A model generated the notes under the pieces. That model ran no database searches. It saw only the letters and a list, made by a program, of their open reading frames with translations, and was not told where the DNA came from. 64,000 bases of DNA from Acidimicrobiales bacterium (lineage in GTDB: Bacteria > Actinomycetota > Acidimicrobiia > Acidimicrobiales > SHLQ01): contig JAHDEJ010000017.1 of assembly GCA_020628865.1 (NCBI GenBank), positions 1,534 to 65,533 of the forward strand, in the 5' to 3' direction. Position numbers and translations under genes: made by a program. Positions 1 through 43,366 of this stretch are shown in pieces (within the stretch, counting starts at the first letter, position 1; every line of letters begins with the position of its first letter).

Positions 1-2
1 CC

Positions 3-191
3 GTGTGGCCGGATGGCGACCAGCAGATGCAGGCCCACGTGGACATCGATGTGCCGGACCTCGATGTGGCCGAGGCCGCAGTGATGGAGCTGGGTGCCGT
101 GAAGCACGAGGTGCAGCCGTACCCATCGAGTTTCCGCGTGTTCCTCGATCCGGCCGGCCATCCGTTCTGCCTGGTGCGGGAGAAAGAGTAA
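3..191 (+). CDS. VOC (glyoxalase/bleomycin-resistance fold) family protein, C-terminal fragment; the 5' end lies outside the window
   Basis: The ORF is open at the window edge. The tail HVDIDVPDLDVAEAAVMELGA...FRVFLDPAGHPFCL resembles the last beta-alpha-beta-beta-beta module of VOC proteins (D-P-x-G-x-x-F-x-L ending). Confidence 0.45.
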   Translation: MWPDGDQQMQAHVDIDVPDLDVAEAAVMELGAVKHEVQPYPSSFRVFLDPAGHPFCLVREKE

Positions 192-229
192 GCCGGGAGG
201 ACGGGCCCGGGCTCCGTACAATCGAAGAC

Positions 230-724
230 GTGATCCACGTCGAGTCGACCTCTCCAGCAGACACTGGTGCGCTTGCGGCAACCCTCGCGGAGCGAGCGGA
301 GCCCGGAGACGTGCTCGTGCTGGTGGGCGACCTCGGTGCCGGCAAGACCGCGTTCTCCAAGGCGTACGGCGCGGCGCTCGGCGTGACCGAACCGATGACG
401 AGCCCGACCTTCACGCTCGCCCGGGAGTACCAAGGCCGTCTGCCCCTGCACCACCTCGACGTCTACCGGCTGGAGATGATGTCGGAGGTGCTCGACCTCG
501 ACCTGCCCGACCTGCTCGACAGCGGCGGTGTTGTACTCATCGAGTGGGGCGACGCCATCCTCTCCACACTGCCGGCCGACTTCCTCGAGATTCGATTCAC
601 GTTCGGCGAAGGCGACGACGACCGCCACATCGAACTGCGCCCCGTCGGCGCCCGCTGGTGTGGCCGTGAGGCTGCGCTCGCCGACGCGCTCGGCACGTCG
701 ATCGCCGGCGGTGAACCGTGCTGA
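230..724 (+). CDS. tsaE: tRNA t6A37 biosynthesis ATPase TsaE
   Basis: GTG 230 lies in the frame of ORF 5..724. It has the P-loop GDLGAGKT plus SPTFTL and HLDVYRL motifs. Its stop overlaps the tsaB start, and it sits first in a tsaE-tsaB-rimI-tsaD array. Confidence 0.85.
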   Translation: MIHVESTSPADTGALAATLAERAEPGDVLVLVGDLGAGKTAFSKAYGAALGVTEPMTSPTFTLAREYQGRLPLHHLDVYRLEMMSEVLDLDLPDLLDSGGVVLIEWGDAILSTLPADFLEIRFTFGEGDDDRHIELRPVGARWCGREAALADALGTSIAGGEPC

Positions 725-1416
725 TTCTTGGCATCGAAACCGCTGGTACGCAGGTGGGGGTGGCCATCGCCGGACAGGAAGGTGTGCTGGCCTCGGCCCA
801 CTCCGGCCGAGACCGTCGCCATGCCGAATCGCTCACGCCGATGATCGAGTTCGTGGCGAGTCAGGCGCGCATCGAGCTGAAAGACGTCTCGGCAGTCGCC
901 GTCGACATCGGTCCCGGTCTGTTCACCGGGCTGCGCGTCGGCCTTGCGAGCGCAATGGCGATCGCTCATGCGCTTGGTGTGCAGATGATCGGGGTCTCCA
1001 GTCTGGATCTGCTGGCCTTCTCGTCCCGCCACTCCTCCCGTCGAATCGTCACCTGCATGGACGCGCGGCGCAACGAGGTCTTCACCGCCGACTATCGGGC
1101 GGTTCCCGGCGGAGTCCAACGCATCACCGAACCAATGGTGGCGTCCCCGGCCGAGCTCCGGGGCGAGCTCGTCGCCCTCAAGGATGACGTACTGCTCGTC
1201 GGCGATGGTGCGCTTCGGTACGCCGACGAGTTCGGATCGATCGAACACGTCGAACTCGCAGGCCCAGACGTGGCCCACCCGTCGGCCCGGTCGCTGGTCG
1301 ACATCGCTCATCACAAGGCTGTTCGCGAAGAGTTCGTTCCGGCGAACGAGCTCGAACCGATGTACCTCCGGTTGCCAGATGCCGAGATCAATTGGAAGAC
1401 CCGCAACGATGGCTGA
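718..1416 (+). CDS. tsaB: tRNA t6A37 biosynthesis protein TsaB (YeaZ-like)
   Basis: The N-terminus LILGIETAGTQVGVAI is typical of the ASKHA-fold YeaZ family. It lies between tsaE and rimI, and its end overlaps the rimI start. Confidence 0.85.
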   Translation: MLILGIETAGTQVGVAIAGQEGVLASAHSGRDRRHAESLTPMIEFVASQARIELKDVSAVAVDIGPGLFTGLRVGLASAMAIAHALGVQMIGVSSLDLLAFSSRHSSRRIVTCMDARRNEVFTADYRAVPGGVQRITEPMVASPAELRGELVALKDDVLLVGDGALRYADEFGSIEHVELAGPDVAHPSARSLVDIAHHKAVREEFVPANELEPMYLRLPDAEINWKTRNDG

Positions 1417-1981
1417 CGTCGCATCGCCGACCTCCGAGCCAGTCGTTTCGGCGGAGCGGCTCGCCATCCGCGCTGCAGAAGCACGGGATGTGCACGCCAT
1501 CATGGCGATCGATCGGCACGCCTATCCCACGCCATGGTCCCGGCGAATGACGATCGATCAGGTGACCGGCAGCAACCGCACGCACCTGGTCCTGGAGAAG
1601 AACCACGAGGTCGTCGGGCACGCCGGCGTGTTGTTCATGGCCGGCGAAGCACACGTGAGCACGATTGCCTTGGCGCCGGAGGTGCACCGCCGCGGCCACG
1701 GCTTCGACCTGCTGCTTGCGCTCGTGCGTGCGTCCCTCGCCGCCGGCTGCCACGCACTCACCCTCGAGGTGCGGGCCACCAACAAGACTGCACTTGCCCT
1801 GTACCGCCGTTTCAGCCTGGCCCCGGCCGGCATCCGCCGCGGCTACTACGGCGACAACGGTGAAGACGCCCTCGTGTTGTGGAGCCCCGAGTTCTCGGGC
1901 GACTACCTCGACCGCATATCGGCGATGCGCTACGTCCACGAGTTGGACGTACCCCATCAATTGGAGAACCCATGGGACTGA
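1409..1981 (+). CDS. rimI: ribosomal-protein-alanine N-acetyltransferase RimI (GNAT)
   Basis: ATG 1409 lies inside ORF 1184..1981. The GNAT acetyl-CoA motif is present (VHRRGHGFDLL, R-x-x-G-x-G). The gene occupies the conserved position between tsaB and tsaD. Confidence 0.8.
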   Translation: MADVASPTSEPVVSAERLAIRAAEARDVHAIMAIDRHAYPTPWSRRMTIDQVTGSNRTHLVLEKNHEVVGHAGVLFMAGEAHVSTIALAPEVHRRGHGFDLLLALVRASLAAGCHALTLEVRATNKTALALYRRFSLAPAGIRRGYYGDNGEDALVLWSPEFSGDYLDRISAMRYVHELDVPHQLENPWD

Positions 1982-2970
1982 TCCTCGCCATCGAAACGTC
2001 CTGCGACGAGACCGCCGCTTCGGTCGTCGAGTCCGGCACCAACGTGCTGTCCTCGGTCGTCTCGAGCCAGATCGACATCCATGCCCGGTACGGCGGGGTC
2101 GTGCCCGAGGTGGCGAGCCGCGCACACGTCGAGATGCTGACCCCGGTCATCGCCCAGGCGATGGTTGAAGCTGGCATCGAACCGGACGAGCTCACGGCGG
2201 TTGCGGCGACGGTGGGGCCGGGCCTGATCGGGTCGCTGCTGATCGGCGTGAGCGCGGCCAAGTCGTTGGCGCTCGTGTGGGACAAACCGTTCGTGCCGGT
2301 CAATCACCTCGAGGGTCATCTCTACGCGGCCTCACTCGAAGAACCCGACATGCCGATGCCCGTCGTCACGCTGCTCGTGTCCGGCGGCCACACGATGCTC
2401 GTCCTCCAGGAGGGCCACGGCCAGTACCGGCTGCTCGGCGAGACGCTCGACGACGCAGCCGGCGAGGCGTTCGACAAGGTCGCCCGCTACCTCGGCCTCG
2501 GCTATCCGGGAGGCCCCATCATCGATCGCATGGCCGCCGACGGCGACCCCATGGCCATCTCGTTTCCGCGGGCCATGATGAACGACGGCTACGACTTCTC
2601 CTTCAGCGGTTTGAAGACCTCCGTCGTGAACCACGTCCGCAAGAACCCGGATGCAGCCGACGTGGACGTTGCCGCTTCGTTCCAGGAGGCCGTCGTGGAC
2701 GTGCTCGTCACCAAGGCTCGTCGAGCCGTACACGAGTACGGGGCCGAAGCGCTCTGCATCGGCGGTGGCGTTGCCGCGAACTCCGGGCTCCGCGAGCGGG
2801 TGCTCGACGTGTGCGTGGAGGACGGACTTCGCGCACTCATCCCGAGCCGATCGATGTGCACCGACAATGCGGCGATGATCGCCGCAGCGGGATGGTGGCG
2901 CTGGCAGTCCGACGGCGGAGCCAGCCTCGACCACGGTGCCGACTCCAGCCTGCGCCTCCAAACGATCTGA
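1972..2970 (+). CDS. tsaD: tRNA N6-adenosine threonylcarbamoyltransferase TsaD (Kae1/Gcp)
   Basis: ATG 1972 lies in ORF 1879..2970. The product starts MGLILAIETSCDETAASVV and contains HLEGHL, SGGHT and GGVAAN motifs. Confidence 0.95.
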   Translation: MGLILAIETSCDETAASVVESGTNVLSSVVSSQIDIHARYGGVVPEVASRAHVEMLTPVIAQAMVEAGIEPDELTAVAATVGPGLIGSLLIGVSAAKSLALVWDKPFVPVNHLEGHLYAASLEEPDMPMPVVTLLVSGGHTMLVLQEGHGQYRLLGETLDDAAGEAFDKVARYLGLGYPGGPIIDRMAADGDPMAISFPRAMMNDGYDFSFSGLKTSVVNHVRKNPDAADVDVAASFQEAVVDVLVTKARRAVHEYGAEALCIGGGVAANSGLRERVLDVCVEDGLRALIPSRSMCTDNAAMIAAAGWWRWQSDGGASLDHGADSSLRLQTI

Positions 2971-2999
2971 TCTTCCGACCGGCGGAGCCGGGTCAGAAC

Positions 3000-3392
3000 T
3001 CAGTTTTGGTCGAGGGCGGTGATGGCGCGCTTGGGGGCGGTGAGGCGGAACGACTCCTCCAGCAGCTCGGCGACCTCGTCCCAGTCCGTGGCGTCGTCGA
3101 GATCCAGGCCGATCCAACCCGATGGCCCCCAGTACGCCGGCACGAAAACCCGCGCGTCCTGAACCAACGCGTGTCGTTCGTCCTCGGTTACCTGCACGAG
3201 CACGGCCTGCGGGTGTTGCACCCACTCGTTGTCGATCTTGAGCGCACCGCCGTAGATGCAGAACACCTTCTTCGTGAAGAACGCCGGTCGTCCGTGCGAC
3301 ACCTTCTCATCGGCGTCGGGCAGTGCAAGAGCCAATCCCCGAACACGAGCGAGGAACGGATCGTCGTCATCGAACATTTGCTGGTGCGCCAT
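3000..3392 (-). CDS. MmcQ/YjbR-family protein (small DNA-binding-like fold)
   Basis: This 130-aa ORF has a VSHGRPAFFTKKVF...WIGLDL pattern typical of the YjbR/DUF419 family, and GC-rich third codon positions. Confidence 0.55.
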   Translation of the reverse strand: MAHQQMFDDDDPFLARVRGLALALPDADEKVSHGRPAFFTKKVFCIYGGALKIDNEWVQHPQAVLVQVTEDERHALVQDARVFVPAYWGPSGWIGLDLDDATDWDEVAELLEESFRLTAPKRAITALDQN

Positions 3393-3438
3393 GAGTCGAT
3401 CGTAGCGAGCGGGTCCGACGGCACTCCGGCCGTTGCGC

Positions 3439-4836
3439 TCAGATCTGGCGGAAGCCCTTTCGGGTCATCGTTCCCCAGTCGTTGCGCCCGAGCAGCGCGT
3501 CGACCATGCCGACCAGCCGCCACAGCAGGGTGCCCAGGTGCACGACCGTGCTCTCGAACACTGCGTGGATCACGAGCTTGAGGCGGTCCGTGCCGTGCTC
3601 GTACGGATGATTGATGAGTTCGTCGCCGAGCAGGACGAGGAACGTGATGAGCAGGCTGACGAGGTACGCACAGACGACCACGAGGATGACGCCCTCGGTC
3701 GCCGTGCCGTTCGCCAACGCCACGAGGAAGAACAACAACCCGACGAGCTCGAGGATCGGTGCCACGAACTCGACGAGCAGGTAGTACGGCAGGACCACGG
3801 TCCCCGCAGCACCGTAGCGGCGGTTGAAGAGCATCTCCCGATGCCGTTTCAGCACGTCCAGCAGCCCGCGATGCCACCGGCCCCGCTGATTCGCAAGCAC
3901 TTCGATCGTCTCGGGAACCTCCGTCCACGAACAGGGTGTCGTGGTGAAGATGACGTGTGCAGGGCGACCGGTTTCGTAGCCCCGTCGGCGAAGCCGGACG
4001 ACCAACTCCATGTCCTCGGCGATCGTCTCCGGTTCGTAGCCGCCGATTTCGAGAATGCTGTCTCGGTCGAAGAGGCCGAAGGCGCCACTGATGATGATGT
4101 TGCCGCCGAGCTTGTTCCAGCCGAGCCGGCCGACCATGAACGCCCGGACGTACTCGACCGCCTGCGCTCCCGGGAGGATCCGGTTGGGGGCGCTCATCTT
4201 CATGACGCGGCTGTGCTCGATGGTGGCGCCGTTGGCATGTCGAACCATGCCGCCGCTGGCGACCACTCCTTCGCGTTCGATGAACGGCACGGCGAGCTGT
4301 TGCAGCGCCGTCGGCGCGATCAACGTGTCGGCATCGATGAAGCAGATCAGTTCGCCAGACGCAAGGTTGATACCGGCGTTCATCGAGTCGGCCTTCCCGC
4401 CGTTCGCCTTCTCCGCGACGATCAGGTTGGGCTCGGTGCTCGATCGGTAGATCTGACCCATCGTCGCCGTGTCGATCTGGTGTTGGTACACGGAGTGCAC
4501 GGGCACGAGTTCGTACAACCGGTCGAGAACCCCGAGGGTGTCGTCGGTTCCGCCGTCGAGCACGATCACGACCTCGAGGTTCGGATAGTTGAGGCCGAGG
4601 ATGTTCGTGCTCGTCTCACCGATCGTGAGCTCCTCGTTGTACGCCGGTATGACCACGGTGATCTTTGGCGGCACGGTGCTCGACAATGCCCGGTCCCACA
4701 GGTGGTGCTTCTCCCGCTGTTTGATGTGCCGGGCCTCGAGCGTTGCCGAGACGAACAGGACGAGTTGCGTGCCGGCGAGGGCGAGCACGACGAACGTCAA
4801 GAGCGCGGCGCCGGCAAGGCCGAGCATGTCGATCAT
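3439..4836 (-). CDS. processive family-2 glycosyltransferase (PgaC/IcaA/NodC/cellulose-synthase-like exopolysaccharide synthase), polytopic membrane protein
   Basis: It has an N-terminal TM helix, then VVIPAYNEE, VLDGGTDD, FIDADT (DxD), IAEDMEL (ED catalytic motif) and NQRGRWHRG (Q-x-x-R-W), followed by 3-4 C-terminal TM helices. Its start overlaps the stop of the upstream HEAT gene. Confidence 0.85.
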   Translation of the reverse strand: MIDMLGLAGAALLTFVVLALAGTQLVLFVSATLEARHIKQREKHHLWDRALSSTVPPKITVVIPAYNEELTIGETSTNILGLNYPNLEVVIVLDGGTDDTLGVLDRLYELVPVHSVYQHQIDTATMGQIYRSSTEPNLIVAEKANGGKADSMNAGINLASGELICFIDADTLIAPTALQQLAVPFIEREGVVASGGMVRHANGATIEHSRVMKMSAPNRILPGAQAVEYVRAFMVGRLGWNKLGGNIIISGAFGLFDRDSILEIGGYEPETIAEDMELVVRLRRRGYETGRPAHVIFTTTPCSWTEVPETIEVLANQRGRWHRGLLDVLKRHREMLFNRRYGAAGTVVLPYYLLVEFVAPILELVGLLFFLVALANGTATEGVILVVVCAYLVSLLITFLVLLGDELINHPYEHGTDRLKLVIHAVFESTVVHLGTLLWRLVGMVDALLGRNDWGTMTRKGFRQI

Positions 4837-5918
4837 GCGACCGCCTCCGCGTCGAGCTCGAACAGGTCTTCCGCGTCGAGGGGCGGCGGCTGACGAAGTC
4901 GCACCGCCGCCGCGTGAAGCACCTGACGCGCCATGTCGCGTGCAAACGGATCGTCCGCCGTGAGCGATCGCCGGAGTACCAGCGTGCCGACCGGGCCGAG
5001 CTGGTCGAGGGCGAGTCCGGCGCTGCGACGCACGTCCCAGGAGCGGTCGCCGAGCAGTGCACCGAGCGTGGGGGCGTGGCTCGTGGCACCGATGTAGCCG
5101 GTCGAGATCGCCGCCTGCGCCCGCACGGCCTCCGAATCGTCCGTCAGGAGGATCCCGAGGATCTGGCCGGCCGCCCGCGTTGCCGACAAGCCGAGACCTC
5201 GCGCCACGAGCACACGGGTCGATGCATCGGCCGCACCGAGCCGCGCGTTCAACATCGCCTGAATGCCGGGGTCGGGAATCCGAGACGCAACTTCGAGCGC
5301 TCGCTGGGTTCCCGCACGGCTCTGATCGCCCAGATACGCCTCGAGTAGATGGAGGGACTTGGGTTCGCTCCGAATGAGTGCGCTCTGCGCGGCCTGATGC
5401 ACCGGGCGTTCCGGGGAGTCGAGGGCAACGAGCACGAGGTCATACCAACGGTGCAACGCGTCACTCGTCAGGCCGGCGACCGCGTAGGCCCGAACCATCG
5501 GATGGGAGTCTCGCAGGAGGGTCCGTTGCACGCTCGACGAAGCCGGTAGCAGATGGAGGAGTTGGCTGGCTCGCATGCGCTTGCGCCACTTTCGACTCCT
5601 GCTCAGCCGTCGGATGTCGCGGTCCAGACCGAACGCGTCGACCAACTGGAGCGCCCGGTCGAATGCGGTGCCTTCGACGTCGTATGCGAGCGACTGCAGT
5701 GAGCCGAGGAGCAGTCGCCGAGGAGTGTTGTGGTGGGCTCGGACCTGTGCCGGCGTCGGCGGTGTGGCGGCCATGAGGAGGGCCACGAGCTGGCGCTGGA
5801 CCTGATCCAGCCGCTGCTCGCGTCGCTTGCGCAGGAAGTCCCGGATGTCTCCGCCCAGAACGAAGGTGCCGGCCGCGGCGACATTCGCAACGACGAGGAC
5901 CATTGCAAGGGTCCTCAT
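4833..5918 (-). CDS. membrane-anchored HEAT-repeat protein
   Basis: It has an N-terminal hydrophobic anchor (LAMVLVVANVAAAGTFVL). Repeated HEAT-like units follow (DSHPMVRAYAVAGL, DDSEAVRAQAAISTG, DRSWDVRRSAGLALDQLG). Start and stop overlap the neighbouring genes on both sides. Confidence 0.65.
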   Translation of the reverse strand: MRTLAMVLVVANVAAAGTFVLGGDIRDFLRKRREQRLDQVQRQLVALLMAATPPTPAQVRAHHNTPRRLLLGSLQSLAYDVEGTAFDRALQLVDAFGLDRDIRRLSRSRKWRKRMRASQLLHLLPASSSVQRTLLRDSHPMVRAYAVAGLTSDALHRWYDLVLVALDSPERPVHQAAQSALIRSEPKSLHLLEAYLGDQSRAGTQRALEVASRIPDPGIQAMLNARLGAADASTRVLVARGLGLSATRAAGQILGILLTDDSEAVRAQAAISTGYIGATSHAPTLGALLGDRSWDVRRSAGLALDQLGPVGTLVLRRSLTADDPFARDMARQVLHAAAVRLRQPPPLDAEDLFELDAEAVA

Positions 5919-7867
5919 GACGGTCCGTCGGCGCGGGCGATCATCTGGTCGACTCGGTGCGCCAGCACGAGTGGCACGAACGGCTTCCGAATCGAATCCA
6001 CTGCGCCGAGTTCGTACGCCGTGCGAAGTTCGAACTCATCGGAACGAGAGGCCAGCATCAGCACCTGCAATCGACCCATCAGACCGTTCGAGCGAAGCTG
6101 CCGCAGCAGGCGGATGCCGTCGAGACCGTCGAGATCGAACTCGAGGAGGATCGCCCGCGGCAGGGGAGGGCGATCCTGGTTGACGAGGCGAGCCAGCGCT
6201 TCGATGCCGTTCGAGACCTCGGCAACGGTCAGATCCCGCTCCTCGAGCACTGTCCGCATCACGGCCCGGTGGGCGGCGTCGGGATCGATGATGAGGACGT
6301 CGGCTCCGGCGGTTGCGCTGCTGACCCAATCGCTCGCTGCGACCCGTGGTCCCCGGCTCCGCTTGGTGCGCAGAATCGTCGCACCGGCCGAGTCCAAAAG
6401 CGCGTCGACCGTCCGGCCATCGGCCGGGAACTCGGAGATGCCCACGCGGGTGCGGTCCACGTCGAGGCCGACCCGATCCACCAGGGAGGCAAAGCGTTTC
6501 ACGGCGACGTTCCGGGGAAGACCGGGAAGCAGGACGACGGCCTCGCGTTCGTTGAAGCGGCCCACGATGTCTTCGCGACGGAACTCGGAGATGAGGCCCG
6601 GCATCGCTGCGTTCAGTTCCTCCGTGGTCACGCTGTCGTCGATGGTCAGACGGGCGAGGCTTGCTCGGTGTCCGCTGCGGCCCTGCCGACCGAGCAGGCG
6701 CTCGGCCAACAGCTGTACCGAGGTCCAGCTCAGCGTCGCCGCTCGAGCATCGGAGGTGTCGACGTCCGACGTTCGACGGTGGCGTCGCACGCCAGCCATC
6801 ACGGCAGCCACGATCTCGTCGTCCTCGATGTCGGGCGGAAGGGTCATGTCGGCGCCGCTGCGCAACAGCTCGATTCGCTGGCTCACTCGAAGCTGGTAGC
6901 TGGGGATCACGGCAACACGAAGCGAACGGAAGTCCTCGTTTGTCCGCAGGAGGGTTGCGACGGCGAGCGCTTCGTCGTGCGGAATCCGATCGAGCAGCAC
7001 GGAGACGACGCCGAGTTCCCTGGCTGCGTCGGCGACCGCTGGCGCACCGATGCTGATGTGGCAGTGTTCGAATTCGGCGCTTCGATGCGGCAGTTCACGA
7101 GGCTCGGCCGAGCCCGACACCACCAGAACCCGCGGCGGCCGCTGGGCGTGCACGACGGACACGAGGACCTGCTCGGCCGCCGCGCCCGGATCGTCGGTGT
7201 CGAGGGTGGCGTGAATGTGCCGACGAGCGTCGGTGGAGAGGTCCTCCTCGTCCGACACCACCGCGAAGATCAGTGCATCGCTGCGCCGGGCTCGGGCCTC
7301 GGCGAGGATGGCGCTCGCCTGTGAACGCTCGCCTCGTGCGATTGCGACGAGCAGGGCGTCCGCAGGACCCTCGGGTTCGACGCCTGGGTCCTCGATTCGC
7401 AGCCCGACGCCACGCAGCGCCAACGACAGCGCGATCGTGTCCAACTCAGCCGTCGGGGTTCCCGTCACCACGGCAACCCGCTCGGGGGCCGCCGCCGTCG
7501 TGAGACCGGCTTCGGTGTCGGCCAGCGCGATCCGGAGGTCCTCGAGGGCCCGGGCCGCGTGCAGCGCCGGCGACCGGGTTTCCGTCTCTCCTGCGCACAG
7601 TCGTTGCACGTCCCGTACCAGTTCGGCGCCGACCGCGAGCCCGAGCTGGCTCAGACGCCTCGCCAATCCGTTGCAGGATTGCGTGACCTCTTCGACCTCC
7701 ACGTGCGTGAGGGGCCGCTCGAGCATGGCCGCGACGGGGCCCTCGATCACATGGAGAGACCGTTCGAGCCGCCGATGCATTCGCCGCCACACGATGTCCG
7801 TCTCGTCGTGTGGTTGCGGTGTGTCAGTGGTCCGCCGGTCGATCAGGGTCGATTCGACACTGGACAC
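5915..7867 (-). CDS. multidomain signalling protein: weak HPt-like segment, two pseudo-receiver modules, a degenerate GGDEF domain (NEREA with RxxD retained) and a C-terminal canonical receiver
   Basis: The C-terminal REC is intact (IIDPD, LLEFDLDGLDG, MLAS, IRKPF). The GGDEF-like segment FRREDIVGRFNEREAVVLLPG aligns to R-x-x-D-x5-GG(D/E)EF-x-x-x-x-P. The start is taken at GTG 7867 (TTG 7876 is also possible), because the longer ORF to 8116 overlaps the upstream peptidase gene. Confidence 0.7.
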   Translation of the reverse strand: MSSVESTLIDRRTTDTPQPHDETDIVWRRMHRRLERSLHVIEGPVAAMLERPLTHVEVEEVTQSCNGLARRLSQLGLAVGAELVRDVQRLCAGETETRSPALHAARALEDLRIALADTEAGLTTAAAPERVAVVTGTPTAELDTIALSLALRGVGLRIEDPGVEPEGPADALLVAIARGERSQASAILAEARARRSDALIFAVVSDEEDLSTDARRHIHATLDTDDPGAAAEQVLVSVVHAQRPPRVLVVSGSAEPRELPHRSAEFEHCHISIGAPAVADAARELGVVSVLLDRIPHDEALAVATLLRTNEDFRSLRVAVIPSYQLRVSQRIELLRSGADMTLPPDIEDDEIVAAVMAGVRRHRRTSDVDTSDARAATLSWTSVQLLAERLLGRQGRSGHRASLARLTIDDSVTTEELNAAMPGLISEFRREDIVGRFNEREAVVLLPGLPRNVAVKRFASLVDRVGLDVDRTRVGISEFPADGRTVDALLDSAGATILRTKRSRGPRVAASDWVSSATAGADVLIIDPDAAHRAVMRTVLEERDLTVAEVSNGIEALARLVNQDRPPLPRAILLEFDLDGLDGIRLLRQLRSNGLMGRLQVLMLASRSDEFELRTAYELGAVDSIRKPFVPLVLAHRVDQMIARADGPS

Positions 7868-7913
7868 AATGATCAATGTCGGTGCGTGCCGGCGCCGCCT
7901 TGAGCCCGGTGGG

Positions 7914-8597
7914 TCAGATGATCCAGCGACCCCGACTACGGGCAAACAGCATGGCGAAGTAGGCGATGCTCGTCGCCGCCGCCGCAACGTAGGTGAGCGC
8001 GGCGGCTCGGAGCACTGCTTCGACGCCGTCCCGCTGGGCCGGGTCGGACAAGCCGAGACGTTCGAGGCTGTCGAGCGCACGTCGGCTCGCGTTGAACTCG
8101 ACCGGCAGGGTCGCAAGCTGGAAGATCGTCATACCGGCGAGCAGGAGGGCGCCCACCTGCAGGATCGTCTCGCTCCCGGTGAGGAATCCGGCGATCACGA
8201 CCATCGGCCCGAACCGTGCACCGAGCGCCGCCAACGGCACGAGGAACCGACGGAGGCGAAGGCGCAGGTCGTTCGATGCGTCCTGGAGCGCATGGCCGGC
8301 TTCGTGCGCCGACACCGCCATCGCCGCCACACTCGTCGTCCCCCAGTTCGATTTCGAGAGTCGAAGGATGTCCTTCTGCGGGTCGTAGTGGTCGGTCAGT
8401 TTTCCTCGGACCTGCTGCAGCTCAACGCCTTCGACGCCGTGGTCCTGCAGGATCGCCGCCGCCGTCTGGGCCCCGGTCACCCGGTACTGATTCTCGACTC
8501 GACTCCACTTCTTGTAGGTTCGCTGGAGCCACCACTTCACGAGGTAGGAACCACCAAAGGCCAGCCCCGCCAGGAGATATGCCATTCCGGTACTCAT
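7914..8597 (-). CDS. membrane zinc metallopeptidase (YugP/Zn_peptidase_2-like)
   Basis: This 227-aa ORF has a HEAGHA zinc motif, an N-terminal TM helix and two C-terminal TM helices. Confidence 0.8.
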   Translation of the reverse strand: MSTGMAYLLAGLAFGGSYLVKWWLQRTYKKWSRVENQYRVTGAQTAAAILQDHGVEGVELQQVRGKLTDHYDPQKDILRLSKSNWGTTSVAAMAVSAHEAGHALQDASNDLRLRLRRFLVPLAALGARFGPMVVIAGFLTGSETILQVGALLLAGMTIFQLATLPVEFNASRRALDSLERLGLSDPAQRDGVEAVLRAAALTYVAAAATSIAYFAMLFARSRGRWII

Positions 8598-8660
8598 GGG
8601 GCGAGACTATGTCCCGCGGGCTGCGCCCTCCAAGGCTCGGGCCTCCGGTACGTTCGTGCC

Positions 8661-9374
8661 ATGGACGGATGGACGCGGCGGAACGCAATTGTCGTCACGG
8701 TCGTCGCGTTCGTAGCCGTGGCGCTCTTCGCGTGGTTCTGGAGCAACCGCACCCGCGTCGAGGTGCTCGGCATTGACCGTTGGGAACCCGACGTCCTGTC
8801 CGTGATGGTTGGCTCGTGCAACGGCGCGCCGGAGGCGGACGTCGTCGACCTCGGCGACGGCCGGTATGAGGTCGAGGCCCGCACGACGCAGGCATACGAT
8901 TCCGGCCGGGACTGCGGCGACGTGGTGCGGATTCCGATCGACCCGAACCTCGATGCACTCGAGGTCGTCGATCGGGTGAGTGGCGACACGTTTCGCTGGC
9001 CGGAGGTCCCGGTGGCCGTGGTCGACATCGACGGCACGTGGCGGATGGTCGAGGTGAACGGCGATCGGGTGGTGGTCGGCGTCAACACCACCGAGATTCC
9101 GGAGATCACGATCGACGCAGGCTTCCTCACCGGCAATCTGGGCTGCAACGACGGCGGCGGCGAATTGCTGCAGGACGAGTCGATCCTCGAAGCGCCATTC
9201 ATCGAAAGCACCGAGGAACTGTGCACGCTTCCGGACGGAGGCGAAGCCATGGTGCCCACGGAACGGACCGTGGTTGCACTGCTCGGCGACGGCGCCACGG
9301 TCGAACGCAGCGACGATCGAATGACCTGGCGGGGCGAAGCCGGAACGGTGACCTTCGACCGAATCGAAGGTTGA
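8661..9374 (+). CDS. membrane-anchored META-domain (HslJ-like) protein
   Basis: ATG 8661 lies inside long ORF 7215..9374. It has an N-terminal TM helix (AIVVTVVAFVAVALFAWFW). The C-terminal half carries the META pattern GTWRMVEVNG...GNLGCNDGGG...STEELC... Confidence 0.65.
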   Translation: MDGWTRRNAIVVTVVAFVAVALFAWFWSNRTRVEVLGIDRWEPDVLSVMVGSCNGAPEADVVDLGDGRYEVEARTTQAYDSGRDCGDVVRIPIDPNLDALEVVDRVSGDTFRWPEVPVAVVDIDGTWRMVEVNGDRVVVGVNTTEIPEITIDAGFLTGNLGCNDGGGELLQDESILEAPFIESTEELCTLPDGGEAMVPTERTVVALLGDGATVERSDDRMTWRGEAGTVTFDRIEG

Positions 9375-9422
9375 ACCGTTCTTCGCAGCAGCGAACGCGC
9401 CAGCGGTCGCCCAACAGGTCGG

Positions 9423-9449
9423 CTGGCACTCTCGCTGCTCGGTTGCCAA
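9423..9449 (+). promoter_or_regulatory. CIRCE-like inverted repeat (HrcA operator), distal copy
   Basis: The sequence is CTGGCACTC-N9-GGTTGCCAA, against the consensus TTAGCACTC-N9-GAGTGCTAA. It is the weaker of the two copies upstream of groES. Confidence 0.45.
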
Positions 9450-9470
9450 CGAGCGACGCGCTCTCTATCG

Positions 9471-9497
9471 TTGGCAGTCGGTTGTGGCGAGTGCCAG
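9471..9497 (+). promoter_or_regulatory. CIRCE-like inverted repeat (HrcA operator), proximal copy
   Basis: The sequence is TTGGCAGTC-GGTTGTGGC-GAGTGCCAG, with 9-nt arms, a 9-nt spacer and 4 mismatches to the consensus. It lies 53 nt upstream of the groES ATG. Confidence 0.65.
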
Positions 9498-9549
9498 TCA
9501 CCGTCGAGCCGATTTCAAATCCATGATTCACATCGCCAAGGAGGCGTGA

Positions 9550-9840
9550 ATGAACCTGCAGCCACTCGAGGACCGCATTGTTGTGCGGCCGGCAGCACCC
9601 GAACAGACGACGGCCAGCGGCCTCGTCATCCCCGACAGCGCAACCGAAAAGCCCCAGCAGGGCGAGGTCATCGCTGCTGGTCCGGGCAAGCGCTCCGATC
9701 AGACCGGTGAGGTCATCCCGATGGACGTCAGCGTCGGCGACGTCGTCGTCTACTCGAAGTACGGCGGCACCGAGATCTCCTCGGCCGGCGAAGACCTGCT
9801 CATCCTCAACGCTCGCGACGTGCTCGCGATCGTCAAGTAG
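9550..9840 (+). CDS. groES: co-chaperonin GroES
   Basis: The 96-aa product ([12 protein letters not shown]...GEVIAAGPG...[10 protein letters not shown]) is typical Cpn10. Confidence 0.97.
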
Positions 9841-11505
<1,665 letters not shown>

Positions 11506-11648
11506 TTCCGCTTCGTTGCCAGCGCCTGCGAACCCTCTCGGGTTCGGTCGCAATTTTGGCAACGACGGAATTGCGTCTCTTCTCCTTCGGAGAGAGCGTT
11601 CATTCGCCACGCAGGCTTGCGCCTGAGGCGCAGATAGCGAATTTGAAG

Positions 11649-11686
11649 GGAGGCCCGGTGCTTGCGCCGGGCCTCCTTCCGTTTTG
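11649..11686 (+). terminator. rho-independent terminator downstream of groEL
   Basis: A GGAGGCCCGG-tgcttgcg-CCGGGCCTCC stem-loop is followed by TTCCGTTTTGCG. Confidence 0.7.
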
Positions 11687-11762
11687 CGATGGCTGAGAAC
11701 GTTGTTCATTTGGATCCGTCCGACCCTTCAAGCGGGGGTGCCCGATCGGTACGGTCTGTGCC

Positions 11763-12419
11763 GTGGAACACGACACACGCCAGCGATTTGTCAAGGCCGC
11801 TCTGATGACCGCGGTTCTCGGAGATGAGAAGCGCAGCGTTCGCACTGTGGCGGCCGAGGCCCTCGCAACGCCGTCGCTGTTGTACCGCTATTTCGGCTCG
11901 TTCGAAGACCTCGAACGCGAAGCCCGCACCGTCGCACTTGCGACCGTCCTGGGTGATGACGTCGGGCATGGCTACCTGGTCGAGCTACTCGGCGGCGTGG
12001 CCAACACCGAGCCGCTGTTCGATCCGGACGAGTACGCCCCGGCCTTCGTCGACAACGAACTGTTCCCCAAGCTGCACATCGCGTGGCTGCGCCGCAACGC
12101 CGACTTCGTCGTCTGGCTGTTCAAGAGCCACGACTTCGCCGACGTCTTCGAAGCGGTTCGACCCGGTCTGGTGCAGGCGTTGTTCTTCCGTGGCGCCGAA
12201 GTCCACGAACAGACGTTTTCGCTTGCGTTGGACACGATGGTGGCTTGGGTTTGTCACAGCGCCACCTGCGGCGCGGAGGAACTCCCCGAAGTCCTGCAGT
12301 GGGCGGGGGACACGGTGCATGCACTCGCCGAAATTCGCGACGAAGGCGGGCTCAAGACGACGCTTTCGGAGGCGGTCGAGAGCTTCGGTGTCGACGGAGT
12401 TCTCCTGCTCGATCGCTGA
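11763..12419 (+). CDS. TetR-family-like transcriptional regulator
   Basis: It has a GTG start. The N-terminal segment RQRFVKAAL...SVRTVAAEALATPSLLYRYFGSFEDL resembles the TetR HTH, while the rest is not diagnostic. Confidence 0.5.
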   Translation: MEHDTRQRFVKAALMTAVLGDEKRSVRTVAAEALATPSLLYRYFGSFEDLEREARTVALATVLGDDVGHGYLVELLGGVANTEPLFDPDEYAPAFVDNELFPKLHIAWLRRNADFVVWLFKSHDFADVFEAVRPGLVQALFFRGAEVHEQTFSLALDTMVAWVCHSATCGAEELPEVLQWAGDTVHALAEIRDEGGLKTTLSEAVESFGVDGVLLLDR

Positions 12420-12466
12420 GCCAAAAGCTCGGCTCAACTCAGCTGCGGAGTCGCCGATTGGAGCCA

Positions 12467-14200
12467 ATGGCGGCAATTCGGCGGAACGAATCGGAGCGCG
12501 ACGCGACGCGCCCCGGCGAAGGTCTCGTCGATCGCTATCTGGCCGGCGACGCAGCGCTCCACGACCTGCTGACCGAGATGGGTTGTGTGCTCTACGTCCA
12601 CGACGTGGACGAGGCGCTGACCATCATCGATGCCATCGGTGCAACGGAGATGGTGTCCGGCTATCCGGTGCAGTCCCTGCCGGGCATGTCCATGGTGAGC
12701 CTCATCGCCGAAGAGGATGCGTTGGACGACCCGACCCGACGAACGGAGACAGACGCCTTCGAAGGAGATGTTCGGGTCCGGCGAGCCGACGGAACCTTCG
12801 AGTGGCTCATGGTCTCGAGCAGCCTGCGGTCCACACCTGACGGGGACCGCGTGTTCGGTCTGGCCCAAACACTTCGCGTCCTGAAGGTCCGGCATGCTGC
12901 GCAGATGCGGCAGCTCGAGACCGACGCCCTCACCGGCCTGCTCAGCCGCGACGCGTTCATGCGTCGGTTGATGCAAGCGATGGTGAGCAGCCCGGAGCGC
13001 GTGGTCTTGGCGATCATCGATCTGAATGCGTTTGGCCAGGTGACCGACACCCACGGACTGCAGGTGGGGGACGAACTGCTCCGACTGATTGGTGGCCGGC
13101 TGGCTGAGCACTTCGGAGCCGATCTACACCTCTCCCGCCTGGGAGCGGACGAGTTCGGCGTGTGTCTGACCAGCTGGCGATCCGATGGAGAGGTGCTCGC
13201 CCTCATGGAGCAGCTGCTGGAAGACATCCGGCGACCGATCGAGATCGGTGCCCACGTCTTCGAAATGCGGGCATCCGTCGGGCTGACCCGATCGACCGAG
13301 GGCGTCACGACGACCGAGTTGCTTCGCCAAGCCGACGTCGCAATGACCGAAGCTCGGCGCTCGGACGTCGGCTGCCTGATGCACACGGCAACCACGGCCA
13401 GCATGAGCGAGGAAGAGCTGGGCATCATTCACCGGTTGACGCAGCGGCTTGAGGATGAGCTCGTGATGTGGTTCCAACCGCTCGTCAACATGGACACCGG
13501 AGAGACCGTGGGTCTCGAGGCGCTCGCCCGCTGGGATCACCCGGAACGAGGGATCCTTCCCCCAGGGGCGTTTCTCGACTGTGTCACCCTCGGCGGGTTG
13601 TCCTCCCGCCTCGATCTTTGGGCGCTGGCCGCCACAGCCCGGGTTTCCGGTGCGTCCACCAACAGCGGCGAACCGATTCGCCTGTCGGTGAACGTGACGG
13701 CCGAAGGGCTCCGCTCACCGCAACTGATGCCGGCGATCCGACAACTCCGCACGATGGGAGCCCTGGCGCCGGATCAACTGACGATCGAGCTGTCGGAACG
13801 GGACATCGACGACGATCTGAAACAGCTCGCCCCGACACTCAACGAACTGAGGCGGCTCGGCGTCGGACTCTCCCTCGACGACTACGGCACCGGGTTCTCG
13901 TCCTTGATCCGCCTGCGCGATCTTCCGTTCACCGAAGTGAAGGTGGATCGATCGTTCGTGAGCCGGATCACCTGTGACCACACCGACTGGTCCATCGTCC
14001 GCTCGACCGTCGAGATGTCGAAGCTGCTCGATCTTGACATCGTTGCGGAGGGGATCGAGGACATCGACACCGCGGAGGCGCTCGCCGACATGGCGTGTGG
14101 CCTGGGCCAGGGCTACCTCTTCGCGAAGCCGGCCCCCATCGAGCAACTTGCGGCCGACGGATACATCCGGTTGCCGAGCTGGGCCGACCGGGTCAGCTGA
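12467..14200 (+). CDS. PAS-GGDEF-EAL protein (GADEF variant cyclase site, apparently intact EAL phosphodiesterase)
   Basis: ATG 12467 lies in ORF 12083..14200. The GGDEF domain shows DALTGLLSRDAF and RLGADEFGVCL. The EAL domain shows EALARWDHP, ELSERD, DDYGTGFSSL, KVDRSFV, AEGIED and GQGYLFAKP. Confidence 0.85.
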   Translation: MAAIRRNESERDATRPGEGLVDRYLAGDAALHDLLTEMGCVLYVHDVDEALTIIDAIGATEMVSGYPVQSLPGMSMVSLIAEEDALDDPTRRTETDAFEGDVRVRRADGTFEWLMVSSSLRSTPDGDRVFGLAQTLRVLKVRHAAQMRQLETDALTGLLSRDAFMRRLMQAMVSSPERVVLAIIDLNAFGQVTDTHGLQVGDELLRLIGGRLAEHFGADLHLSRLGADEFGVCLTSWRSDGEVLALMEQLLEDIRRPIEIGAHVFEMRASVGLTRSTEGVTTTELLRQADVAMTEARRSDVGCLMHTATTASMSEEELGIIHRLTQRLEDELVMWFQPLVNMDTGETVGLEALARWDHPERGILPPGAFLDCVTLGGLSSRLDLWALAATARVSGASTNSGEPIRLSVNVTAEGLRSPQLMPAIRQLRTMGALAPDQLTIELSERDIDDDLKQLAPTLNELRRLGVGLSLDDYGTGFSSLIRLRDLPFTEVKVDRSFVSRITCDHTDWSIVRSTVEMSKLLDLDIVAEGIEDIDTAEALADMACGLGQGYLFAKPAPIEQLAADGYIRLPSWADRVS

Positions 14201-38609: not shown

Positions 38610-40490
38610 ATGCACGAGGGAATGGACCGGGATTCACGGCGCGCCCAGGAAGCGGACCGCCTCTTCGAGGAGCAACGAGCTCGTATCAGCACGCTCGATG
38701 CGGCGGGCATCTTCGGCGCGGCCGTGTTCGCCTCGGTGATGTTCTGGGGACAGCCGTTGGTGATGGCCTGGTCCGTCGTCCTGTTCTCCCAGGTCGTGTC
38801 GGGGTTCTTCACCCGTCGGGTGGGCGAGCCCCTCAGCCGAATGATGGAGCTCTGGTGGGTGTCCGGGAGTTCGTTGGCATGGGCCGTGCTTCCGCTACTT
38901 GCGTTCAATGAGGCAGGTCAGGTCGAGGGCGCATGGGTGCTCACGTCCATCCTCGTGTTCGGGGTCGCGAGCGATGCCGTCTACCTGCCACAGACCTACG
39001 AAAAGAACGTCGTGCTCACCAGCGTGGCGTATTCGATTCCCTATCTCCTCGTGCTTGCCTACCAGGACATGTGGTCGCCGGTGATCCTCGTGTTCGGCAT
39101 CCTCATCCACGTCGGTTGGGGAGCCGTCGGCATCTCGGGACTGGTCGACGACCTGATCAGTCGACGTGTCGACGCCGTCATCTCCGCCGAGCGTGCACAT
39201 CTCTCGGCGCGAACCGATGGCCTGACCGGCCTGCTGAATCGTTCGGGGGTCATGGCGGAGCTGCGCCAACTCGCCGGATCGGATGCGGTCGTGCACTGTG
39301 TCTTCGTCGACTTGGATGACTTCAAGTCCGTCAACGATCAGCTCGGCTACGAGGCTGGTGATCGCCTGCTCAGCCGTTTGGGGCTGTCGCTCCGCGCCGT
39401 CTTCCCACCCGACTGGAAGGTCGGTCGATTCGGCGGCGACGAATTCATCGCGGTCGGGGTCGGCGGAGATCTCGAGCACATCGCGCAACAGCTGACCTCG
39501 CTTCGGATCGCGCCCGAGACCGGGCTCTTCGCTCGACGCACACGCTTTGTGCACGCATCGGCCGGTATCGCATCACTTCCGATCCGTGTCGGCGAAGCAG
39601 ACGAACTGGTGTCGCATGCGAGCGCTGCGGTCCGCGAAGCGAAGTCCCGCGGGAAGAGCACCGTCGTGATGAGTGATGAGACGTTTCGGGAGAACCTGCG
39701 ACGCGGCCGCCTCCGGGCCGCGGCCTTGGAACAGGGGATCGCACGCGGGGAGTTCGTTGGATTCGTGCAGCGCATCGTCGACCTCGACACCGGGCTGACC
39801 CGCGGGTTCGAGGTCCTCGCACGTTGGCAGCGGGATGACGAGCTGGTGCCTCCCGGTCTCTTCGTCGAACAGGTGGAGCGGCAGCATCTGCAGCGCGAAT
39901 TCGACCGGGCGATGTTGGATCGTGGGATCGAACTGCTGCAGTCGCTCGATGCACAGGGACGCACCGATCTGACCGTGTCCGTCAACATCTTCGCCTCGCA
40001 TCTGCTCGATGCCGGTCTGCCGGATTTCCTGCGCGACCGACTCGATCGAGCAGCCGTGGATTCCGGTCGTCTCGTGCTCGAGGTCACGGAGTCCGATGAT
40101 CTCTCCGCTGGCGATGTGGCGCTCGAGGTCGCAAATGCGCTTCGGGAGATGGGAATCGGTCTGTCGATCGATGACTTCGGCACCGGCTACTCCTCGATGA
40201 CGCAACTTCTCAGTTTTCCCTTCACGGAGATGAAGCTCGACCGTTCGCTCGTCGATCGCGTCGGCGCACCCGACGCCGACGACCTCCTGAAGGCGCTGTG
40301 CGACTTCGGACGCCGCCATGGTCTGCAGGTGGTCGCCGAAGGCATCGAGGGAGATCGGCAACTCGAGGCCATTCGTCGATTGGGTGTCGAGGTCGGTCAG
40401 GGCTTCCACTTCCACCGGCCGACCGCCGCCGAAGCCGCCCTTGCGGAACTGGCCGCCGAGGTGTCGGCCACCGACTTGTCTGCCGCCTGA
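38610..40490 (+). CDS. membrane-bound GGDEF-EAL protein (intact GGDEF; EVL-variant EAL)
   Basis: The N-terminal region has about 6 TM helices. The GGDEF domain shows RTDGLTGLLNRSG and RFGGDEFIAVG. The EAL domain shows FEVLARWQ, EVTESD, DDFGTGYSSM, KLDRSLV, AEGIEG and GQGFHFHRP. Confidence 0.85.
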   Translation: MHEGMDRDSRRAQEADRLFEEQRARISTLDAAGIFGAAVFASVMFWGQPLVMAWSVVLFSQVVSGFFTRRVGEPLSRMMELWWVSGSSLAWAVLPLLAFNEAGQVEGAWVLTSILVFGVASDAVYLPQTYEKNVVLTSVAYSIPYLLVLAYQDMWSPVILVFGILIHVGWGAVGISGLVDDLISRRVDAVISAERAHLSARTDGLTGLLNRSGVMAELRQLAGSDAVVHCVFVDLDDFKSVNDQLGYEAGDRLLSRLGLSLRAVFPPDWKVGRFGGDEFIAVGVGGDLEHIAQQLTSLRIAPETGLFARRTRFVHASAGIASLPIRVGEADELVSHASAAVREAKSRGKSTVVMSDETFRENLRRGRLRAAALEQGIARGEFVGFVQRIVDLDTGLTRGFEVLARWQRDDELVPPGLFVEQVERQHLQREFDRAMLDRGIELLQSLDAQGRTDLTVSVNIFASHLLDAGLPDFLRDRLDRAAVDSGRLVLEVTESDDLSAGDVALEVANALREMGIGLSIDDFGTGYSSMTQLLSFPFTEMKLDRSLVDRVGAPDADDLLKALCDFGRRHGLQVVAEGIEGDRQLEAIRRLGVEVGQGFHFHRPTAAEAALAELAAEVSATDLSAA

Positions 40491-43281: not shown

Positions 43282-43366
43282 CGTTGACTCCCTTGCCGGG
43301 ATCGTGCTGATCGCCGATCCGACAGTCTGACACGGAACGCGCAGCGTTCGGCAGCGTGCGCCGGAG

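Follow-up and report, generated by a model that had tools for sequence, protein, structure and literature searches.

How would a membrane polysaccharide synthase be controlled when it is encoded together with a HEAT-repeat membrane protein and a signaling protein that contains a dead cyclase domain? The question is raised by three genes on the minus strand of a 64-kb stretch of DNA from an Acidimicrobiales bacterium (GC content ∼66%), referred to below as the window. Gene 1 encodes a five-domain signaling protein, gene 2 a transmembrane (TM) HEAT-repeat protein, and gene 3 a family 2 glycosyltransferase (GT2). An original prediction, made from the letters of the window, had described the trio as a coupled operon in which a receptor-like protein for c-di-GMP (the cyclic dimer of guanosine monophosphate) serves a processive synthase. 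The reading that we favor, with moderate confidence, for the observed domains, motifs, gene coupling, and cross-lineage conservation is that the trio forms a self-contained synthase-dependent polysaccharide module under dual control by c-di-GMP and phosphorylation, both exerted through gene 1.

The Glycosyltransferase and Its HEAT-Repeat Partner

The 465-residue protein of gene 3 scores above the cut-offs of GT2 families in Pfam (Glyco_tranf_2_3, 91 bits; Glycos_transf_2, 78 bits), and its top NCBIfam match is PgaC_IcaA (TIGR03937; 125.8 bits, E = 2e-36). Because that score lies below the cut-off of 422.3, gene 3 is not an equivalog of this family; its sequence instead marks it as a relative of the PgaC/IcaA synthases of poly-N-acetylglucosamine (PNAG). 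The cut-off of CelA (TIGR03030) is not reached either (70.8 versus 699). A sequence comparison with the PDB aligns residues 49–401 with BcsA (4hg6/4p00, E = 4e-10). No PilZ domain was found by Pfam in the gene 3 protein, which ends at residue 465 just past its TM bundle, and no BcsB-like partner is conserved across the loci described below, since clustering of the neighboring open reading frames (ORFs) returned the three module genes as the only families in common.

The hallmarks of a processive synthase that had been listed for the last gene, namely DAD, ED, QRGRW, and flanking TM helices, are all present. A crude hydropathy scan places one helix at residues 11–29 and overlapping hydrophobic windows at 344–401, which we read as at least two to three helices. 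Among 41 members of the gene 3 family, conservation is 95% or higher at D168, D170, E274, D275, Q317, R318, R320, and W321, in a C-terminal (D/E)WG..R(K/R)G motif, and, counted from the list, at ∼95 positions in all. We take the WG..R(K/R)G tail to resemble the WGT(R/K) of chitin and hyaluronan synthases, a likeness that is a lead and not a test. With this tail and the PgaC-like score, PNAG, chitin, or a hyaluronan-like polymer would be the foremost candidate products. These sequence features point to a membrane GT2 of the PgaC/BcsA/hyaluronan synthase type with the hallmarks of a processive enzyme.

Gene 2 encodes 361 residues that match Pfam HEAT_2 (54.9 bits versus a cut-off of 27.7) and HEAT (37.8 versus 23.5). 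A single TM segment was found close to the N-terminus, followed by a K/R-rich flank, IRDFLRKRREQR. Given the positive-inside rule and this flank, the HEAT solenoid probably faces the cytoplasm. An AlphaFold2 (AF2) model, built on a 12-sequence alignment, is all-helical, with a long N-terminal helix leading into a solenoid (predicted local distance difference test, pLDDT, 87.3). Foldseek returned only generic alphaRep/HEAT and importin-alpha-type solenoids for this model, so that the fold search yielded designed and importin-type solenoids and no functional analogue. An ARDMA motif is conserved in the gene 2 family.

The Five-Domain Signaling Protein

The relatives of gene 1 are easily missed: a word-indexed search recovered only 3 close relatives, and the family emerged from an exhaustive HMMER search in which the receiver-less N-terminal 488 residues matched 104 proteins. 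About 45 of these are full-length (620–660 residues), with 22–40% identity. The AF2 model of the window protein (pLDDT 88.6) has five domains, and Foldseek places PleD at the top of its matches (E = 1e-14), ahead of DgcR and WspR, with BcsE also matched. No TM segment was found in gene 1, and its product is cytoplasmic. Residue numbers below follow the 621-residue form that starts at ATG 7780.

The fourth domain is a degenerate GGDEF domain, denoted GGDEF*. Pfam GGDEF gives no match in the window protein even at E ≤ 10 and matches 9 of the 43 family members, so the assignment comes from a family profile and the structure model and not from Pfam. The GGDEF* profile, made from 27 loci, matches the Thermotoga maritima diguanylate cyclase 4urg with E = 7.8e-18. 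At the A-site, NEREA stands where GG(D/E)EF would be expected; these five positions vary freely across the family, and the metal- and GTP-binding DxFKxxND loop is deleted, features by which the domain reads as catalytically dead. The I-site has fared differently. R401 is present in 43/43 members and D404 in 40/43, and the family FRReD aligns on the RRSD of the solved cyclase 4urg. In the window protein, RRED (401–404) is followed by IVGRF and then by NEREA, so that the I-site lies five residues upstream of the A-site. We therefore regard the RxxD as a probable c-di-GMP sensor, and a dead GGDEF domain that keeps its RxxD had indeed been proposed for this gene.

What the original prediction missed is the rest of the protein, above all a C-terminal receiver domain (REC). 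This is the sole Pfam-detectable domain of gene 1 (Response_reg, 65.1 bits versus a cut-off of 30.2). Across 43 members, the position of the predicted phospho-acceptor D549 is Asp in 36, K599-P600 is invariant, and D501 is kept in 41; the acidic pocket (D499/D501) and a Ser/Thr at 577–578 are also in place in the window protein. The domain thus looks phosphorylatable, and no other part of the regulator is as well conserved between lineages (107–160 bits).

The three N-terminal domains are degenerate. The first, a four-helix bundle, aligns by hhalign with the Pfam-positive Hpt domain of a Solirubrobacteraceae orthologue, while Pfam Hpt gives no match in gene 1 even at E ≤ 10; the His column (AHKLAG) varies in the family and is N37 in the window protein. 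Pfam REC matches neither of the two internal alpha/beta domains. In our own reading of the sequence, pseudo-receiver 1 appears to lack the acidic pocket and, where beta3 ends, the acceptor Asp, and pseudo-receiver 2 of the window protein appears to lack the acidic pair of beta1 and the KP-motif Lys. The family is collinear over its full length with an intact, Pfam-positive Hpt-REC-GGDEF-REC orthologue (hhalign, 626 columns, probability 100%, E = 3e-49). Gene 1 can therefore be described, from alignment, as a decayed Hpt-REC-REC-GGDEF-REC phosphorelay diguanylate cyclase that has kept its I-site and its last receiver.

An Invariant Pair and a Variable Regulator

We collected loci L001–L049, which represent ∼43 distinct contigs; the distant ones were found from a 5-sequence HEAT alignment. 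In all 49 loci with the TM-HEAT subfamily (L001–L047 plus L048–L049), the HEAT gene is followed directly and on the same strand by the GT2 gene. In close relatives (88% identity in gene 1; several metagenomes), the whole trio recurs in the same groES/EL and tsaBDE neighborhood. The expectation that the triplet is conserved as a unit, which had been set beforehand as the refuting test, is thus borne out: the trio recurs in relatives and the HEAT–GT2 pair at every locus collected. Remote HEAT homologues of equal size (24–48% identity) occur in 39 genomes, mostly Acidimicrobiales metagenome-assembled genomes (MAGs). The hosts of the module include Acidimicrobiales, Micrococcaceae, Nitriliruptoraceae, Solirubrobacteraceae, Thermoleophilaceae, and two proteobacterial MAGs, one of them gammaproteobacterial; named carriers among the distant hosts are Arthrobacter sp. 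Hiyo4 and Zafaria cholistanensis. The database names of all three proteins are generic. Longer HEAT proteins from Anaeromyxobacter and Gemmatimonadota have no adjacent GT2 gene; they were left out of the family and act as a negative control.

The regulator is the part that changes. About 24 loci, mostly from Acidimicrobiales, have the degenerate five-domain form of the window. Solirubrobacteraceae and related MAGs encode a Pfam-positive Hpt-REC-GGDEF-REC protein with GGEEF or GSDEF, which is preceded by a single REC wherever upstream sequence exists and, in L008, by a hybrid kinase as well. In Nitriliruptoraceae the motif is partly degenerate (GASEF). Within Micrococcaceae, Zafaria has Hpt-REC-REC without GGDEF, with a hybrid kinase and a single REC upstream, and the Arthrobacter loci have REC domains and no match to the GGDEF* profile. 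Three loci have a single REC only, in one the GT2 gene is followed at once by a histidine kinase gene, and one has no regulator.

The GGDEF domain thus shows a graded decay between lineages, read from L041, L042, L037, L032, L035, L039, and L006/L034: GGEEF in Solirubrobacteraceae, then GSDEF, GASEF in Nitriliruptoraceae, the degenerate form with loop deletions in Acidimicrobiales, and loss in Zafaria. The L037 regulator, in the same operon position, carries GSDEF in a complete Pfam GGDEF domain. In this way the regulator family records a stepwise passage from an active phosphorelay diguanylate cyclase to a sensor-only protein, parallel to that between PleD and PopA. We note that the L042 regulator keeps GGEEF and has PGDD in place of RxxD.

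The HEAT–GT2 pair is therefore the invariant element, the regulator varies, and the regulatory element seen most often is a receiver domain. From the regulator sequences, c-di-GMP sensing appears to be a lineage-specific layer and not the defining feature of the module.

Further genes accompany the pair at some loci. The gammaproteobacterial locus (L046:3273-7290) encodes, in order, a single REC, a TPR plus YaiO-type beta-barrel protein, the HEAT protein, and the GT2. The barrel gene is expected in a diderm, because polymer export there would need an outer-membrane exporter, and we take its product to resemble outer-membrane exporters of the NfrA type. Separately, ∼380-residue proteins with no Pfam match are encoded directly downstream of the GT2 gene at L007:10564-11709 and L044:7319-8461, and could represent an extra lineage-specific component.

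How the Module May Be Controlled

Under the dual-control reading, gene 3 would polymerize a nucleotide sugar, with its own TM bundle as the conduit for the chain. Gene 2 would be its obligate partner, with the solenoid acting as a docking platform beside the cytoplasmic glycosyltransferase domain of the synthase. Gene 1 would be the cytoplasmic signal integrator: in this lineage its Hpt, its internal receivers, and its cyclase site are predicted to be dead, and the inputs that it appears to keep are the RxxD I-site, for c-di-GMP as in PopA, PelD, and BcsE, and the C-terminal receiver with D549. Binding of c-di-GMP, phosphorylation, or both would shift its conformation or oligomeric state, and the C-terminal receiver would then engage the HEAT protein and switch the synthase on or off post-translationally. 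The receiver is the likeliest contact to the HEAT protein because no other element recurs in as many lineages. Two GGDEF-EAL genes in the window, at 12083..14200 (+) and 38610..40490 (+), could supply the enzymes that set the c-di-GMP level; two turnover genes had been noted before, and both are there.

Several points weigh against this reading. The contacts of the HEAT protein with the receiver and with the GT2 are something that we infer purely from gene order. The GGDEF domain is absent or unmatched in Zafaria and Arthrobacter, and elsewhere there is a single REC or no regulator, so c-di-GMP sensing is dispensable in other lineages and not essential to the module. Where GGEEF is intact, the regulator may make c-di-GMP, and the HEAT–GT2 pair could be the true receptor. 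No kinase or other receiver that could be the source of a phosphorylation input lies within the 64-kb window. Lastly, the invariant R429 appears to be off the exact position of the secondary I-site Arg of PleD.

Three other explanations were weighed, each of which is less consistent with the conservation pattern than dual control. The one that survives best, though we think it unlikely, is that phosphorylation is the only control, with the GGDEF*, pseudo-receiver, and pseudo-Hpt domains as dimerization or spacer relics and the RxxD retained for fold stability. It would account for the C-terminal REC being the best conserved regulator part across lineages, for the Zafaria and Arthrobacter loci, for the three loci with a single REC upstream and the one with a histidine kinase after the GT2 gene, and for the hybrid kinase and single REC that precede the regulator gene in fuller systems. 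It does not readily account for an R401 and D404 that are held at 43/43 and 40/43 although the catalytic motif and the substrate loop have decayed. An I-site that is kept while catalysis decays is the pattern of the known receptors PopA, PelD, and BcsE. A phosphorylation-only control also meets the lack of any kinase or Hpt donor in the window, where gene 1's own Hpt is dead, and the presence of two GGDEF-EAL genes nearby.

It is less likely still, and in our view improbable, that the HEAT–GT2 pair is itself c-di-GMP-responsive, in the manner of PgaC and PgaD, which bind the nucleotide jointly, and that gene 1, derived from a dedicated local cyclase, is in this lineage a decayed remnant, a buffer, or a localization factor and not the activator. 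The complete Pfam GGDEF domains of Solirubrobacteraceae (GGEEF) and L037 (GSDEF), encoded at the same operon position, fit a local c-di-GMP source for the neighboring synthase, and one locus shows that the pair exists without any regulator gene. Pfam detects only HEAT and GT2 families in the pair and no known c-di-GMP-binding domain, a scan that a novel site would escape. The degenerate gene 1 is under purifying selection over its full length in ∼45 clusters and is therefore not a dying remnant.

Least likely of all, and very improbable, is that the GT2 is no exopolysaccharide synthase but adds sugar to a lipid or a lipid-linked carrier, to give a glycolipid or cell-wall glycopolymer precursor, with the HEAT protein as a regulatory subunit. 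This would suit the gene 3 score far under every NCBIfam equivalog cut-off, weak Pfam matches that include Glyco_transf_21, a closest PDB sequence match to the archaeal membrane mannosyltransferase 6yv7, and the lack of a deacetylase, hydrolase, or export gene with the operon in this actinobacterium. Against it, QRGRW, ED, and the C-terminal TM bundle characterize processive synthases of the self-translocating kind, the BcsA match spans residues 49–401, the diderm variant has a TPR/beta-barrel export gene, and the conserved WG..R(K/R)G tail has its presumed likeness to chitin and hyaluronan synthases.

Relation to Known Synthase Systems

The dual-control module can be placed against described systems. 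With PgaC-PgaD and IcaA-IcaD it shares a membrane GT2 with an N-terminal TM helix, a C-terminal TM bundle, DxD, ED, and QxxRW, as well as a co-encoded membrane partner, which in those systems is small; PgaCD is activated post-translationally by c-di-GMP. It differs in that the partner is a 360-residue HEAT solenoid and not a short, two-TM protein like PgaD or IcaD, in having no deacetylase gene (PgaB/IcaB), and in having a separate soluble multidomain regulator upstream.

The closest architecture to the REC-REC-GGDEF core of gene 1 is that of PleD and PopA from Caulobacter. We take gene 1 to resemble PopA in its noncanonical receivers, its dead GGDEF site, and its RxxD retained as the c-di-GMP sensor of an adaptor. 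Unlike either protein, gene 1 has an added N-terminal pseudo-Hpt and an apparently functional C-terminal receiver, and it sits in a synthase operon and not in a proteolysis or cell-cycle pathway.

Degenerate-GGDEF I-site receptors encoded beside a synthase, and needed for its activation, are known in PelD, YdaK (Bacillus subtilis ydaJKLMN), PssE (Listeria pss), and BcsE (Escherichia coli cellulose) (PMC4125290, PMC7112168, PMC2170427, PMC8461298). BcsE, with its REC*-GGDEF* tandem, was among the structural matches. The PelD/YdaK-like configuration that had been proposed for this operon holds in so far as a degenerate GGDEF I-site stands beside a synthase; it falls short in that PleD and PopA are closer in architecture. 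PelD and YdaK are membrane proteins, PelD also with a GAF domain, and the Pel glycosyltransferase is a cytosolic GT4. We know of no phosphorylatable receiver, Hpt-like bundle, or HEAT partner in PelD, YdaK, PssE, or BcsE. The broader idea of a c-di-GMP receptor is plausible in this lineage but incomplete, since it passed over the five domains and the phosphorylatable-looking REC, and since the invariant core is HEAT–GT2.

An alpha-solenoid as a fixed part of a synthase system has parallels in the TPR scaffolds PelB, BcsC, PgaA, and AlgK and in PelE, which lies in the inner membrane, carries helical repeats, and may bridge PelD, PelF, and PelG. The present solenoid differs from these in being built of HEAT repeats, in its predicted cytoplasmic location behind one TM helix, and in its partner, a self-translocating GT2. 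As a minimal GT2 synthase module the trio is also like the c-di-GMP-controlled NfrB-NfrA of E. coli. In NfrB, a fused MshEN domain is the c-di-GMP sensor; unlike it, gene 3 gives only GT2 families in Pfam and NCBIfam scans, and the trio has a HEAT protein and a regulator of its own instead.

Known synthase systems (cellulose, PNAG, alginate, Pel, those of Listeria and Bacillus, NfrB) respond to c-di-GMP through PilZ domains, GGDEF I-sites, MshEN domains, or composite sites. To our knowledge, none has a HEAT-repeat subunit and none is gated directly by a receiver domain. In the searchable literature on HEAT repeats with GT2, c-di-GMP, exopolysaccharide, PgaC, or response regulators, no HEAT partner of a synthase is described, in agreement with what had been supposed; one apparent match concerned beta-catenin and was rejected. 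Tentatively, and at somewhat less than even confidence, we propose that TM-HEAT plus GT2 constitutes an undescribed class of synthase-dependent polysaccharide machinery, widespread in Actinomycetota and found in some Proteobacteria, in which a receiver docks on the cytoplasmic HEAT solenoid beside the synthase, two-component phosphorylation gates the processive GT2 directly and post-translationally, and, in the lineage of the window, a PopA-like dead cyclase brings c-di-GMP to the same protein as a second input.

Soil and aquatic Actinomycetota appear to have in this module a minimal alternative of three genes. If the proposal is true, the biology of biofilm matrices would gain a new type of accessory subunit and a new logic of regulation, and a function would be assigned to many entries named "HEAT repeat domain-containing protein" and "glycosyltransferase family 2 protein". 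The cultured carriers Arthrobacter, Pseudarthrobacter, and Zafaria make genetic and biochemical tests feasible.

Gene Junctions and Start Codons

The coordinates of the three-gene, ATGA-coupled operon and both of its 4-nt overlaps are as originally predicted (Table 1), and the overlaps are kept in relatives. The regulator-to-HEAT junction, ...TCATGAGG..., reads CCG TCA TGA / ATG AGG, with the ATGA at 5915..5918; the HEAT-to-GT2 junction, ...GCATGATC..., reads GTC GCA TGA / ATG ATC, with the ATGA at 4833..4836. In a census of junctions that took, for each locus, the candidate start closest to the upstream stop, a choice that favors small gaps, a –4 overlapping start is possible in 36/47 loci at the HEAT-to-GT2 junction, with –1 in 5 more, and in 22/45 loci at the regulator-to-HEAT junction. 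From these overlaps we conclude that tight gene coupling is a conserved property, though many of the loci are mutually related.

Two of the starts deserve comment. In the HEAT gene, another in-frame ATG lies at 5903 behind a better Shine-Dalgarno sequence (GAGGA, 8 nt upstream); this is the start chosen by gene callers in close relatives, and it would give a protein of 356 residues and not 361. For gene 1, whose longest open form is 5915..8116 (–), gene callers place the start at ATG 7780 (621 residues) in the source organism and its relatives. A W-x-R-I-x-x-R-x-E motif that is conserved in the gene 1 family begins 3 codons upstream of this ATG (∼7781–7789). Because this motif is encoded upstream of 7780, the start is probably TTG 7876 (653 residues) or GTG 7867, either of which is better supported than ATG 7780. 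No clear Shine-Dalgarno sequence precedes TTG 7876 or GTG 7867. Over 2900..9000, a promoter scan gave 0 promoters, and terminator-like sites were no commoner than in shuffled sequence.

Table 1. Positions in the Window of the Three Module Genes, Their Assigned Domains, and Sequence Motifs
Feature	Coordinates	Strand	Basis
Gene 1 (p1), signaling protein	5915..7876	(–)	ORF and translation
Pseudo-Hpt four-helix bundle, gene 1 residues 1–95	7496..7876	(–)	AF2 helices 2–95; hhalign onto a relative's Hpt
Pseudo-receiver 1, gene 1 residues 101–213	7142..7480	(–)	AF2 alpha/beta; whole-chain Foldseek to PleD REC-REC-GGDEF
Pseudo-receiver 2, gene 1 residues 218–337	6770..7129	(–)	AF2; aligns to Pfam-positive second REC of L042/L008 orthologues
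Degenerate GGDEF (GGDEF*), gene 1 residues 350–475	6356..6733	(–)	Family profile, Foldseek, AF2
Candidate c-di-GMP site, I-site RxxD, R401-R-E-D404 (RRED)	6569..6580	(–)	Coordinates verified
A-site NEREA (replaces GG(D/E)EF)	6539..6553	(–)	Sequence alignment
C-terminal REC, gene 1 residues 495–617	5930..6298	(–)	Pfam Response_reg
D549, predicted phospho-acceptor of C-terminal REC	6134..6136	(–)	Sequence alignment
Gene 2, TM-HEAT protein	4833..5918	(–)	ORF and translation
TM helix, gene 2 residues 4–22	5847..5909	(–)	Single TM segment found
Gene 3, GT2 synthase	3439..4836	(–)	ORF and translation
DGGTDDT94 of gene 3	4537..4557	(–)	Sequence motif
DAD168 of gene 3	4327..4335	(–)	Sequence motif
ED274 of gene 3	4012..4017	(–)	Sequence motif
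QRGRW317 of gene 3	3874..3888	(–)	Sequence motif
C-terminal WGT motif of gene 3	3469..3477	(–)	Sequence motif

Genomic Neighborhood

In the close relatives L001–L003, the GGDEF-EAL gene at 12083..14200 occupies the same place with respect to the operon. Its ORF is extended at the N-terminal end by a long, Arg-rich stretch that probably remains untranslated, and the true start is likely downstream. A search of the 64-kb window for a histidine kinase, an Hpt donor, or a second receiver domain returned none, which makes the C-terminal receiver of gene 1 an orphan in this setting. An Rfam scan of the whole 64 kb found no family at its gathering score (no tRNA, rRNA, or riboswitch), and a c-di-GMP riboswitch or other RNA element in the window was rejected on this ground.

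A Zn-peptidase gene at 7914..8597 (–) was considered as a fourth member of the operon and rejected, since it adjoins the trio only in close relatives (at least 88% gene 1 identity). A YjbR-family gene at 3000..3392 (–), just downstream of the GT2 gene, is likewise a neighbor only in close relatives, like groES/EL. Beyond it, a tsaE-tsaB-rimI-tsaD-like cluster lies within 1..3392 (+), with TsaD confirmed at 1879..2970. On the other side of the operon, an ORF of 836 codons at 9199..11709 (–) has no Pfam match and runs antisense to groEL (9856..11505, +), with groES at 9550..9840. The likeliest reading of the 836-codon ORF is a shadow frame, common in high-GC DNA, and not a gene. A 1482-residue ORF occupies 40492..44940 (–), and the stretch 42001..44000 is compositionally skewed (GC skew 0.17, AT skew –0.27). 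Further skewed stretches occur at 22–24 kb and 52–54 kb.

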